Part shown: one piece after another, positions 2,781 through 6,114 of the stretch | How positions within the stretch are numbered: the stretch's first letter is position 1 | Layout of the letters: each line of letters opens with the position of its first letter | The notes under the pieces: generated by a model | Told to the model about the DNA's origin: nothing | Seen by the model: the letters and a program-made list of their open reading frames with translations, nothing else | The model's database searches: none | Position numbers and translations under genes: made by a program | IMG/VR virus record: IMGVR_UViG_2917865565_000003 | Coordinates: 1 to 10,282 of that record | Strand: one strand, 5' to 3' | DNA: 10,282 bases | DNA from: a virus | Taxonomy: Duplodnaviria > Heunggongvirae > Uroviricota > Caudoviricetes

Positions 2781-3404
2781 ATGTCATCAATCCGCTTAAC
2801 AACGAGAATGAAAGAGGAAATCGCTCGTAACGCTTTAATTAAGTCTGGGGTTTTCACTGAACTTGAAGAAGTAACAAAGTTAAAGAACCAGCTTGCACTT
2901 GACGCCAGAGTTATTGCGTTTGGCGGTAAAAAGAAAACTGAGGAAGTGGATCAGTTATCATCCAAGTTGGTAGCTATAAGTGAAGAACTTGAAAAGATGG
3001 GATGTTCATTTTACTCATACGATGTTCGTTCTACTTCAATTTATCTGACTGTATCTGGCAGAAGGGTTGGATGGCATTCATATGGGAAAGACGGCAACGG
3101 CGAAGATATATTGCTCCCTACTCCAACCAAAGATAAATGCATGTTTGACGCAGAACACGAAATAACAAAAAGGTTTGATGAAATCTGCGCATTGCAACAA
3201 AACCTTGAAGCCTTGAAAAAGGATATCGAATCAAATGTATGGGCTGCTTTGAACTCAGTCACAACAGTTAAGCGACTTATTGAAGTTTGGCCTGAAAGCA
3301 AAGAATTGCTACCAAAAGAAGCAGATAAAGCAAGTACAGCACTTCCTGCTTTACGGGTAGAAGATTTGAATAAGATGATTGGACTTCCTTCCGAGGCCGC
3401 ATAG
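2781..3404 (+). CDS. Hypothetical protein (207 aa from ATG 2781), unknown function
   Basis: ATG 2781 with GAGAGGA upstream, 11 nt after the N stop. Same frame as track ORF 2721..3404. Predicted largely helical with charged stretches. No motif I recognise. Confidence 0.6.
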   Translation: MSSIRLTTRMKEEIARNALIKSGVFTELEEVTKLKNQLALDARVIAFGGKKKTEEVDQLSSKLVAISEELEKMGCSFYSYDVRSTSIYLTVSGRRVGWHSYGKDGNGEDILLPTPTKDKCMFDAEHEITKRFDEICALQQNLEALKKDIESNVWAALNSVTTVKRLIEVWPESKELLPKEADKASTALPALRVEDLNKMIGLPSEAA

Positions 3405-3995: not shown

Positions 3996-4078
3996 GCCGC
4001 CAAGCGCGGCTTTACCGCATACCAATAATGCTTCACCAGAGGCATTTCCGTTATGTGTAAATAAATAAGGAGCACACC

Positions 4079-4219
4079 ATGCAATATGCCATTGCAGGGT
4101 GGCCTGTTGCTGGCTGCCCTTCCGAATCTTTACTTGAACGAATCACCCGTAAATTACGTGACGGATGGAAACGCCTTATCGACATACTTAATCAGCCAGG
4201 AGTTCCAAAAAATGGATAA
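4079..4219 (+). CDS. cIII: CIII (46 aa), C-terminally shortened relative to the 54-aa lambda CIII
   Basis: MQYAIAGWPVAGCPSESLLERITRKLRDGWKRLIDILNQPGVPKNG then TAA; matches lambda CIII residues 1-46. AAGGAG at 4067-4072. Not in the ORF track (under 60 aa). Confidence 0.85.
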   Translation: MQYAIAGWPVAGCPSESLLERITRKLRDGWKRLIDILNQPGVPKNG

Positions 4220-4325
4220 AACACTTATGGCTATCCAGACTAAATTCACTATCGCCACTTTTATTGGCGATGAAAAGATGTTTCGTGAGGCCGTCGAAGC
4301 CTACAGGAAATGGAGGTCAAAATGA
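4212..4325 (+). CDS. kil: Kil-like host-killing protein (37 aa)
   Basis: MDKTLMAIQTKFTIATFIGDEKMFREAVEAYRKW… matches the lambda Kil N-terminus (MDQTLMAIQTKFTIATFIGDEKMFREAV…, from memory). Start overlaps the cIII 3' end in another frame, as in lambda. Confidence 0.7.
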   Translation: MDKTLMAIQTKFTIATFIGDEKMFREAVEAYRKWRSK

Positions 4326-4511
4326 TTCCGGTAGAACTGGCGAAAACTCCAGAGTTAAGTCGATTAAAAAAGAGAATATCACATTGCTGAGGCTCGTTAC
4401 TGGCGTAAAGCGGGAGATAAATCAAAGAAACAACTTTGTTTATGGCAGGCACAAAGAGAGCGCATGAATGAGCGCGAGTTTCTTTCCTCTCCATCCGAAT
4501 TACCATTCTGA
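4322..4511 (+). pseudogene. Small ORF interrupted at an A6 run: 22 codons from ATG 4322 (stop 4388-4390), then a 48-codon open frame to 4511 in the +1 frame
   Basis: ATG 4322 overlaps the kil stop (ATGA) with GGAGG at 4312-4316. Removing one A from the run at 4366-4371 would give a 63-aa product MIPVELAKTPELSRLKKREYHIAEARYWRKAGDKSKKQLCLWQAQRERMNEREFLSSPSELPF. Confidence 0.3.
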
Positions 4512-4519
4512 GGTGAATT

Positions 4520-5200
4520 ATGGGAACTGCGACATTAATACTCGGTGAGTCTGGCACCGGAAAATCAACCAGCATGAGAAATATCAATCCAGATGAAGCA
4601 ATACTTATAAAACCAATAGGCAAGCCGCTACCATTTAAATCAAAAGACTGGCTTGCATGGGATGCCAGAGCAAAAAAAGGAACTGTAGTTACCACTGACA
4701 AATGGGACGTAATAGTTGCCGTAATTAAGCGTGCTCACGAATACGGGAAAAGAATCGTTATTGTTGATGACTTCCAGTATGTGATGAGCAATGAGTTTAT
4801 GCGCCGCTCAGAAGAAAAATCGTTTGATAAATTCACTGAGATAGGCCGTCACGCATGGGAGGTCATTAAGGCTGCACAGGATGCGCCTGATGACCTGAGA
4901 GTCTATTTTCTTGCCCATACCGAAGAAACCCCTATGGGGCGTGTGAAAATGAAGACTATCGGCAAAATGCTGGACGAGAAAATCACTGTCGAAGGCATGT
5001 TTACTATAGTTCTTCGCACTCTTACCCGCGATGACCAGTTCTTTTTCACCACGAAAAACAACGGTGCAGACACTGTTAAATCCCCAATGGGAATGTTTGA
5101 TTCCAATGAGATTGATAACGATCTCTCTTTCGTCGATGCCACTGTTTGTGATTACTACGGCATCAATAATGTTCATCAAATTAAGGAAAACGCCGCATGA
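4520..5200 (+). CDS. Sak4-like P-loop ATPase (RecA-fold single-strand annealing recombinase family), 226 aa
   Basis: Walker A GESGTGKST at residues 9-17 and Walker B-like RIVIVDD. Size and N-terminal P-loop fit phage Sak4 proteins. Occupies the slot of Red bet/exo. GAGGTG Shine-Dalgarno. Confidence 0.7.
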   Translation: MGTATLILGESGTGKSTSMRNINPDEAILIKPIGKPLPFKSKDWLAWDARAKKGTVVTTDKWDVIVAVIKRAHEYGKRIVIVDDFQYVMSNEFMRRSEEKSFDKFTEIGRHAWEVIKAAQDAPDDLRVYFLAHTEETPMGRVKMKTIGKMLDEKITVEGMFTIVLRTLTRDDQFFFTTKNNGADTVKSPMGMFDSNEIDNDLSFVDATVCDYYGINNVHQIKENAA

Positions 5201-5784
5201 GCAACGTGATTTTTACTTATAACGAAGAAGCAGCACTGACCGCAGGACAAGGTGGTTTTATTAATGAAACTGGCGCTCATGTCATTACCATTACTGAAGC
5301 AGAGCTAAAGCAATCAGAAAAAGGCGCAAAATTTATTGAGTTTTCTGGCGAATCCGACGACGGACGTAAAATCCAATATCTTAGCGTTTGTGTTCAGAAA
5401 AATGACGGAACGGAAAACAAATTTGGCGCAAATGTCGTTCACGCCATGATGGGGTGTGCCGGGATTGGACAATTAACGCAACATATGGTTTCCGCCAGTA
5501 AATTTGTTGCTCCTGAGTTTCACGGAAAGAAAATCGGGTTAGTGCTACAGAAAGTATTAACCACAAACAAAAAGACTGGCGCAGACAGTTACCAGATGGA
5601 AATACGCATCCCGTTTATTGCACAAACAGGTCAAACCCTTAAAGAAAAGGCGGAAGGCAAGCAACCAGAAACTATCGCCAACATGGTTGCCAGCCTCAAA
5701 GATAAAGACAATCGCTCTAAAAACGTAAGCCAGAATCATGCAGATGATTATGGTTACAGCCAGAACGATTACCCTCCTTTCTGA
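5197..5784 (+). CDS. Putative SSB-like partner protein (195 aa) with acidic C-terminal tail ending …NDYPPF
   Basis: Start ATG overlaps the Sak4 stop (ATGA), implying translational coupling. The C-terminal DDYGYSQNDYPPF resembles the acidic D-x-PF tip of SSBs. Sak4 genes are commonly paired with an SSB. OB-fold not verified. Confidence 0.5.
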   Translation: MSNVIFTYNEEAALTAGQGGFINETGAHVITITEAELKQSEKGAKFIEFSGESDDGRKIQYLSVCVQKNDGTENKFGANVVHAMMGCAGIGQLTQHMVSASKFVAPEFHGKKIGLVLQKVLTTNKKTGADSYQMEIRIPFIAQTGQTLKEKAEGKQPETIANMVASLKDKDNRSKNVSQNHADDYGYSQNDYPPF

Positions 5785-5807
5785 TTACTGAAAATAAGGC
5801 TCCCATT

Positions 5808-6104
5808 ATGCCAGCGCCTCTGTATGGTGCGGATGACCCGCGCCGCTGTTCCGGCAATTCCGTATCGGAGGTGCTGGATAAATTCAGAAAAAACTACGAC
5901 CTGATAATGTCGCTACCGCAGGAAACGAAAGAGGAAAAGGAATTTCGCCATTGTATATGGCTTGCAGAGAAAGAAGAACGCGAGCGAATTTACCAGACAT
6001 CAATCCGACCATTCCGCAAAGCCACATATACCCACTTCCCTGAATATATCGACCCGCGCCTGCGTAATTACCGCTCACGCTATGGCGCTATCAGTAATGA
6101 CTGA
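5808..6104 (+). CDS. Hypothetical protein (98 aa)
   Basis: ATG 5808 with AAGG 8 nt upstream. Charged, helical-looking product. Same strand and tight spacing within the early-left operon. Confidence 0.55.
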
Positions 6105-6114
6105 GGAATTCACC

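Follow-up and report, generated by a model that had tools for sequence, protein, structure and literature searches.

What takes the place of gam, bet and exo in a lambda-like prophage in which none of them follows kil, and what, if anything, then acts on the RecBCD enzyme of the host? The question is raised by an E. coli prophage of which we analyzed a stretch of 10,282 nucleotides (hereafter the window; positions 2-10283 of PDIJ01000011.1, GCA_004745205.1). A first-pass annotation, made from the letters of the sequence, had described kil as being followed by a short ORF, a Walker-motif ATPase and a translationally coupled protein of 195 aa, had read the latter two as a Sak4-like ATPase and an SSB-like partner replacing the Red genes, and had implied that this arrangement was new and had no equivalent of Gam. 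Every one of these features is present at the position assigned to it, and the pair does replace the Red genes, as the module occupies the slot after kil and there is no gam, bet or exo. We are highly confident that the region is the HK620-type Rec module, hkaM-sak4-ssb-abc2, situated in the pL operon in place of gam-bet-exo in a mosaic lambda-like E. coli prophage.

What the window covers of this lambdoid prophage is its immunity region together with the early-left (pL) arm, the pL operon being read from the + strand. On the minus strand are cII (342-623) and, at 740-970, a cro-like gene. Also present are an S24-peptidase repressor gene (1079-1765), a lambda-type N gene within an ORF ending at 2769, a gene for an Nmad5 protein (2781-3404), cIII and kil, the block under study (4322-6279, + strand) and then several accessory ORFs, a theta-like ORF (6679-6837) in which both ends of the profile are missing, and lambda-type xis (9013-9231) and int (9209-10282). 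The source contig begins within the phage gene O, the assembly break falling inside the prophage, and beyond int it runs on into RND efflux genes of the host. Because the window spans O/cII through N to xis-int, with host genes beyond, the entire pL operon from N to int, including the slot expected for gam, could be inspected. The phage around the module is lambda-like in its N, xis and int genes. Among the records listed, none covers more than 51% of the 10-kb window, so that the mosaic combination is its own, as one commonly finds with lambdoid prophages. ORFs antisense to the block on the minus strand (e.g., 4261-4701 and 4808-5179) were taken as spurious, the genes on the + strand matching characterized proteins end to end. 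There are no Chi sites in the window, which is uninformative on any RecBCD-dependent strategy because only 0.17 would be expected.

The left edge of the module lies within kil. Immediately upstream, cIII (4079..4219, + strand) encodes a protein of 46 aa, compared with 54 aa in lambda, that is truncated as in HK620, whose record notes an internal stop, and is identical to HK620 cIII at 45 of 46 residues. The kil gene (4212..4325, + strand) encodes 37 aa that match PF06301 (Lambda_Kil; E 8.4e-22) and are identical to HK620 Kil at 36 positions, so that the short cIII and the short Kil are both normal HK620 alleles. Homology with lambda DNA extends over 3996-4314 of the window (92.8% by blastn) and stops at 4314, equivalent to lambda 33228 and only 4 nt from the annotated lambda gam start. 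The C-termini of the two Kil proteins differ accordingly, lambda Kil (47 aa) ending in YKKWILILKLRSSKSIH and that of the window in YRKWRSK, which bears out the earlier suspicion that kil departs from its lambda counterpart exactly at the module junction. This fits a recombination junction within the 3′ end of kil, in keeping with the known exchange of Rec modules among lambdoid phages. As the same short Kil is found in HK620, the cassette normally has its left boundary here, and the junction is not peculiar to the window.

HK620 is the best megablast match among phage records, with 97.5% DNA identity over 4200-6401 (query positions 1-2202 of the 4200-6700 segment searched), and kil, hkaM, hkaL, hkaK, hkaJ and hkaI follow one another in the same order in both. 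The likeness extends to the gene overlaps, the kil junction, the proteins (97-100% identical), the NDYPPF tail and the Walker motifs (Clark et al., 2001; PMC5928155). Where the two differ is in their surroundings and in one gene: HK620 is a P22-like phage with an intact hkaM, whereas the window is lambda-like and its hkaM is broken by an extra A. The last gene common to the block is hkaI (6115..6279, + strand), which encodes a DUF2737 protein (PF10930, E 2.6e-31) identical to HK620 HkaI at all 54 residues; homology ends near 6401, and downstream of about this point the sequences differ.

The novelty implied by the first-pass annotation therefore does not hold. The system is already known: the HK620 module was tested both genetically and biochemically (Hutinet et al., 2018; PMC5928155), and its combination of Sak4, “SSB-2” and Abc2 appears among the types into which lambdoid Rec modules are classified (PMC12315714). 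Because the Sak4 and SSB of the window each carry only two conservative substitutions relative to those of HK620, the experiments that had been suggested for this locus have in effect already been performed on nearly the same proteins. With a coverage of at least 80%, the module was found in 180 of 5426 complete E. coli genomes, and sak4, ssb and abc2 occur together in 45 related viral loci. The lambda-like phage HK629 also carries the module, as do JEP4 and dozens of phages that convert to Stx production. In HK629 and the Stx lambdoid phages, kil-hkaM-sak4-ssb-abc2 lies in lambda-like or lambdoid backbones at 94-97.5% DNA identity, HK629 differing in having an HNH endonuclease gene inserted in the module, so that its match falls into two pieces. 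As a near-identical copy of the characterized HK620 module in a lambda-like prophage, this stretch of the window is ordinary.

The ATPase gene, sak4 (hkaL; 4520..5200, + strand), encodes 226 aa predicted to form a core-only RecA/Rad51-like ATPase acting as a single-strand annealing protein. Walker A (GESGTGKS, residues 9-16) and Walker B (IVIVDD, residues 79-84) lie in the RecA-like core, which has no extra N- or C-terminal DNA-binding domain. The protein matches the phrog_2872 “Sak4-like ssDNA annealing protein” profile (E 2.6e-108 over residues 1-220) and, above the cut-off of 27 bits, Pfam AAA_24 (30.2 bits); there is no NCBIfam model for Sak4, SSB, HkaM or Abc2. Since neither Sak4 nor the SSB has relatives in the PDB detectable by sequence, we built homolog alignments for both proteins, predicted their structures and compared the folds. 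For Sak4, single-sequence and profile searches of the PDB both came back empty and only the fold comparison worked, the predicted fold matching best a solved Sak4, followed by RAD51 paralogs and RecA. Together with identity to HkaL at 224 of 226 residues (the differences, D25E and D43E, being conservative), this confirms the earlier assignment of the ATPase as Sak4-type with a RecA-like fold. A Sak4 of a staphylococcal phage (ORF016, PDB 8RC5) shares only 14% sequence identity with that of the window; it is also an inducer that binds Stl of SaPI2, a role for which the window offers no support.

HK620 Sak4 is an ssDNA-binding protein whose annealing of complementary strands depends on ATP, and it performs no strand exchange in vitro (Hutinet et al., 2018; PMC5928155), and by analogy with this 99%-identical protein the Sak4 of the window would be expected to show ATP-dependent ssDNA binding and annealing as well. 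Alone, HK620 Sak4 raises oligonucleotide recombineering 15-fold, and Sak4 together with SSB, or the whole module, raises it approximately 210-fold, although Sak4 recombineering is weak relative to that of Red-beta (PMC5928155).

The partner protein is encoded by ssb (hkaK; 5197..5784, + strand), the start of which overlaps the stop of sak4 (ATGA; 5197-5200). A cognate ssb adjoins about 80% of sak4 genes, and the window conforms. The 195-aa product ends in DDYGYSQNDYPPF, its tail (SQNDYPPF) being identical to that of HK620, and it is identical to HkaK at 193 of 195 residues with two conservative substitutions. It matches phrog_743 “single strand DNA binding protein” (E 4.5e-66) and is a phage SSB of the distant, DUF669-related type (“SSB-2”). 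How far does it resemble a conventional SSB? No Pfam family was matched at E≤0.1, neither DUF669 (PF05037) nor the canonical SSB family (PF00436), and no SSB in the PDB was found by single-sequence or profile search. Among its homologs, which NCBI names “DUF669 domain-containing”, 13 of 47 touched DUF669 weakly (best E 0.005). Its predicted fold appears OB-like with moderate support. The earlier description of the partner as SSB-like thus stands in view of the near-identity to HkaK, the NDYPPF tail and the predicted fold, but it does not extend to the canonical SSB family; given the absent or weak Pfam matches, “SSB-like” should be read as referring to function and general fold, not to family membership. 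The HK620 protein binds ssDNA, its elution is that of an apparent tetramer, and deletion of its last six residues, NDYPPF, reduced recombineering 10-fold and abolished the binding of Sak4 to SSB-coated ssDNA (PMC5928155).

What, then, of RecBCD? That the window holds no homolog of Gam was correctly stated: lambda Gam, Bet and Exo gave only chance-level tblastn matches to the window (the best of 27 bits, on the wrong strand and inside another ORF), no plausible ORF in the window matched the Gam, RecT or YqaJ Pfam families, and these scans across the pL operon revealed no canonical gam. In terms of function, though, the claim that Gam has no equivalent is wrong, and the answer was among the small neighboring ORFs that had been put forward as possible sources of anti-RecBCD activity. 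The gene at 5808..6104 (+ strand) is abc2 (hkaJ), whose 98-aa product is by its sequence anti-RecBCD protein 2, a probable RecC-binding modifier of RecBCD. Its residues 1-98 align with positions 1-97 of the 97 of PF11043, “Anti-RecBCD protein 2” (E 4.4e-63), and it matches phrog_656 “abc2 anti-RecBCD” (E 1.2e-56). The complex of P22 Abc2 with RecBCD is a solved structure, and the protein of the window matches the P22 Abc2 chain in PDB 8B1T end to end (E 1.8e-57, ~92% identical); it is identical to HK620 HkaJ at 95 of 98 residues.

P22 Abc2 binds RecC and modifies RecBCD (Murphy, 2000 and Wilkinson, 2022, as cited in PMC5928155 and PMC12315714), HK620 Abc2 is 94% identical to this RecC-binding, RecBCD-redirecting protein (PMC5928155), and Abc2 is one of four types of anti-RecBCD protein in lambdoid phages (PMC12315714). 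From the ~92% identity to P22 Abc2 we infer that the Abc2 of the window would likewise bind RecC and modify RecBCD. Abc2 is a functional counterpart of Gam and not a relative of it, as it modifies RecBCD and does not block it. In the oligonucleotide recombineering assay with HK620, abc2 adds nothing (PMC5928155).

The small gene heading the module, hkaM (4322..4511, + strand), begins at an ATG overlapped by the TGA of kil (ATGA) and is disrupted by one extra A. The ORF starting at 4322 is only 22 aa long (4322-4390) and represents the 5′ part of the gene: the alignment with HK620 shows a single-base gap in a run of adenines, A6 at 4366-4371 in the window against A5 in HK620, and the remainder continues in the +1 frame to a TGA at 4509-4511. 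The reconstructed HkaM (62/63 aa) matches phrog_1723 over its full length (E 1.4e-31). HkaM is an orphan of unknown function that has no added effect in oligonucleotide recombineering with the HK620 module (PMC5928155), and a literature search for hkaM returned irrelevant matches only.

Could the Sak4-SSB pair nevertheless lack any known means of countering RecBCD, and a new Gam-like inhibitor be encoded by the ORF at 4322, by 6115-6279 or by 6276-6686? We regard this as very improbable. It is true that the window has no gam homolog and that no function is known for HkaM, for the DUF2737 protein or for the 136-aa protein of phrog_614, but the gene that comes next after ssb (5808-6104) encodes Abc2, which is established as an anti-RecBCD protein, and because this role is filled neither the 4322 ORF nor any other small ORF has a gap to account for. 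The 4322 ORF, which had been offered as one such candidate, is a stub of frameshifted hkaM, a gene without effect on HK620 recombineering (PMC5928155), and nothing about it points to anti-RecBCD activity. Is the module instead a decaying remnant in a defective prophage, the hkaM frameshift being a sign of erosion? In support of this, the +1 frameshift is absent from all other sequences searched, cIII is shorter than that of lambda, and the theta-like ORF has lost both ends. Yet sak4, ssb, abc2 and hkaI are all intact, and their products share 97-100% identity with those of a viable phage; HK620 normally carries the short cIII and Kil alleles too, and recombineering does not require hkaM (PMC5928155). 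We consider erosion unlikely.

The extra A itself might be thought to have a purpose, namely programmed ribosomal frameshifting or transcriptional slippage giving two forms of HkaM. The sequence TTA AAA AAG does place A_AAA_AAG, a classic slippery heptamer, in the frame of the 4322 ORF, and variants in the length of the A-run exist among family members in databases (e.g., P0251 and P0257). A -1 slip, however, would lead into the wrong frame (4264-4467), the conserved C-terminus of HkaM requiring +1, and the slippery arrangement is not conserved, as the A6 allele stands alone (searches of 185,579 species-representative genomes and of IMG/VR gave no exact match) whereas HK620 and 66 viral contigs have A5, every one of the contigs with an intact, uninterrupted ORF of 62 aa. 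We therefore consider frameshifting or slippage to be extremely improbable. An independent Logan assembly (L070, from SRR8835204) agrees with the window throughout 1,895 nt but for this single A, and hkaM is intact there, which argues for a homopolymer error or a recent change and against decay. The extra A is probably a homopolymer error of sequencing or assembly, or else a very recent mutation.

If the HK620-type module works in this prophage as its relatives do, recombination might proceed as follows. Upon induction or infection, N-antiterminated transcription from pL would express the module. Abc2 would then bind RecC of the host RecBCD, reprogramming the enzyme rather than blocking it as Gam does; RecBCD would lose its response to Chi and favor degradation of the 5′ strand, thereby becoming the resection nuclease that the module itself lacks. 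Tetramers of the phage SSB would coat the resulting ssDNA and expose the NDYPPF tail, the tail would recruit Sak4, as an ATP-dependent RecA-core protein without a secondary DNA-binding domain, and Sak4 would anneal complementary single strands, the reaction being annealing and not strand exchange. In the window, the basis for this scheme consists of the gene identities, the near-identity to HK620, the predicted folds, the gene order and the translational overlap. For the 99%-identical proteins, ssDNA binding, ATP-dependent annealing, dependence on the SSB tail and recombineering in vivo are documented (PMC5928155). That the prophage copy in the window is expressed and active is something we infer.

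The slot directly after kil in the pL operon is occupied in lambda by gam-bet-exo, which serves the same task, phage-directed recombination together with the handling of RecBCD. Relative to lambda Red, the module of the window has no dedicated exonuclease and, by analogy, would have RecBCD reprogrammed by Abc2 instead of blocked, and annealing that is ATP-dependent and assisted by SSB. In P22, arf-erf-abc1-abc2 is found in the same position after kil and encodes the same Abc2. In both modules a small ORF lies upstream, accompanied by genes for an annealing protein, for an accessory protein and for Abc2. However, the annealing protein of P22 is Erf (Rad52-like) where the window has Sak4 (RecA-like fold), Abc1 stands where the window has SSB, and Arf is unrelated to HkaM (PMC5928155).

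These results have little importance beyond correct annotation, although they do illustrate that the Sak4-SSB-Abc2 cassette of HK620 is in circulation in lambda-like prophages. Three labels should change: “AAA family ATPase / ATP-binding protein” to Sak4, “DUF669/hypothetical” to phage SSB, and that of the 98-aa ORF to Abc2.

Two minor observations concern hkaM and its relatives. The full-length relatives of HkaM form a narrow enterobacterial family (60-98% identity), all of whose members have at the C-terminus an acidic stretch and then [L/I/M]-P-F, the tips being ELPF, DLPF, KIPF and RMPF. These resemble the tip of E. coli SSB, DDDIPF, and that of HK620 SSB, YPPF, and together with the gene arrangement described next they hint that HkaM may act through SSB-tail interactions. 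That HkaM is itself a mimic of the SSB tail, or an adapter, is a tentative idea drawn from both observations, and we would give it only a small chance of being correct; if true, HkaM could compete for, or redirect, host proteins that bind SSB tails during phage recombination. In addition, hkaM and abc2 bracket a pair other than Sak4 and the HkaK-type SSB in 11 related viral loci, and in the three of these whose ORFs were read out the pair consists of a 235-aa Rad52-type annealing protein and a canonical SSB. With two different pairs found between them, hkaM and abc2 frame a swappable unit of annealing protein plus SSB.

The gene at the head of the module, hkaM (4322-4511), has in the window an A-run of six (4366-4371) where HK620 has five, and this one A too many leaves only 22 aa of the 62-aa protein. 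No second copy of the A6 allele was found among all the sequences searched. Because a sister Logan assembly (L070, from SRR8835204) has the same sequence as the window across 1,895 nt, with the extra A of hkaM as the sole difference, it is likely either that this base is an artefact of sequencing or that it arose by mutation very recently.

The full-length members of the HkaM family (homologs P0241-P0258) keep an acidic-[L/I/M]-P-F tip at the C-terminus that is similar to SSB tails, and HkaM may mimic an SSB tail or serve as an adapter. At 11 viral loci the genes between hkaM and abc2 are a pair other than Sak4 and HkaK, the HK620-type SSB; in all three of these loci that were read out, the flanked pair is a Rad52-type annealing protein (SSAP) and a canonical SSB. 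In the canonical SSB ORFs of alternative Rec modules (loci L057, L013 and L047) the DDDIPF motif is internal and is followed by a 15-aa extension, APVTLPFP[RH]HAIHAI, and therefore the C-terminus of these SSBs is without the usual SSB tip.

Just after the module, a 136-aa protein (6276-6686; phrog_614) has its first ~38 aa in common with HkaH of HK620, after which the two sequences diverge. The DNA match to HK620 stops near 6401, and its end marks a mosaic junction within the same gene. Next is a short ORF (6679-6837, within ORF 6514-6837) with a DNA polymerase III theta domain, HolE/P1 Hot-like (PF06440, E 5.7e-22), which matches NF008207 with an E of 3.5e-21 and yet falls under that model's cut-off. 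It covers only profile positions 13-58 and has a possible TTG start that overlaps the stop of the preceding gene; the ORF looks truncated at both ends.

Elsewhere in the window, a 207-aa Nmad5 (nucleotide modification associated domain 5) protein (2781-3404; PF18757, E 3.5e-71) lies directly after N, where lambda has ral and sieB. The window's lowest-GC stretch (0.35-0.39) contains a 214-aa ORF (7203-7847) that resembles a moron in the equivalent of the b-region; its N-terminus is invasin domain-4-like (PF21764, E 3.5e-08), and the ORF matches no PHROG. Between it and xis are ORFs of 104 and 123 aa (8184-8498 and 8536-8907), neither with a significant match in Pfam or NCBIfam.

The xis-int segment (8982-10282) has a DNA identity to that of lambda of only 75%. 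The assembly splits the prophage, since the source contig (L069) begins within the phage O gene. Where the prophage abuts host DNA in this contig there is not the gal-bio site of lambda but host RND efflux genes, which encode a 415-aa membrane fusion protein and a 1040-aa ACR_tran protein (within L069 10627-14996).
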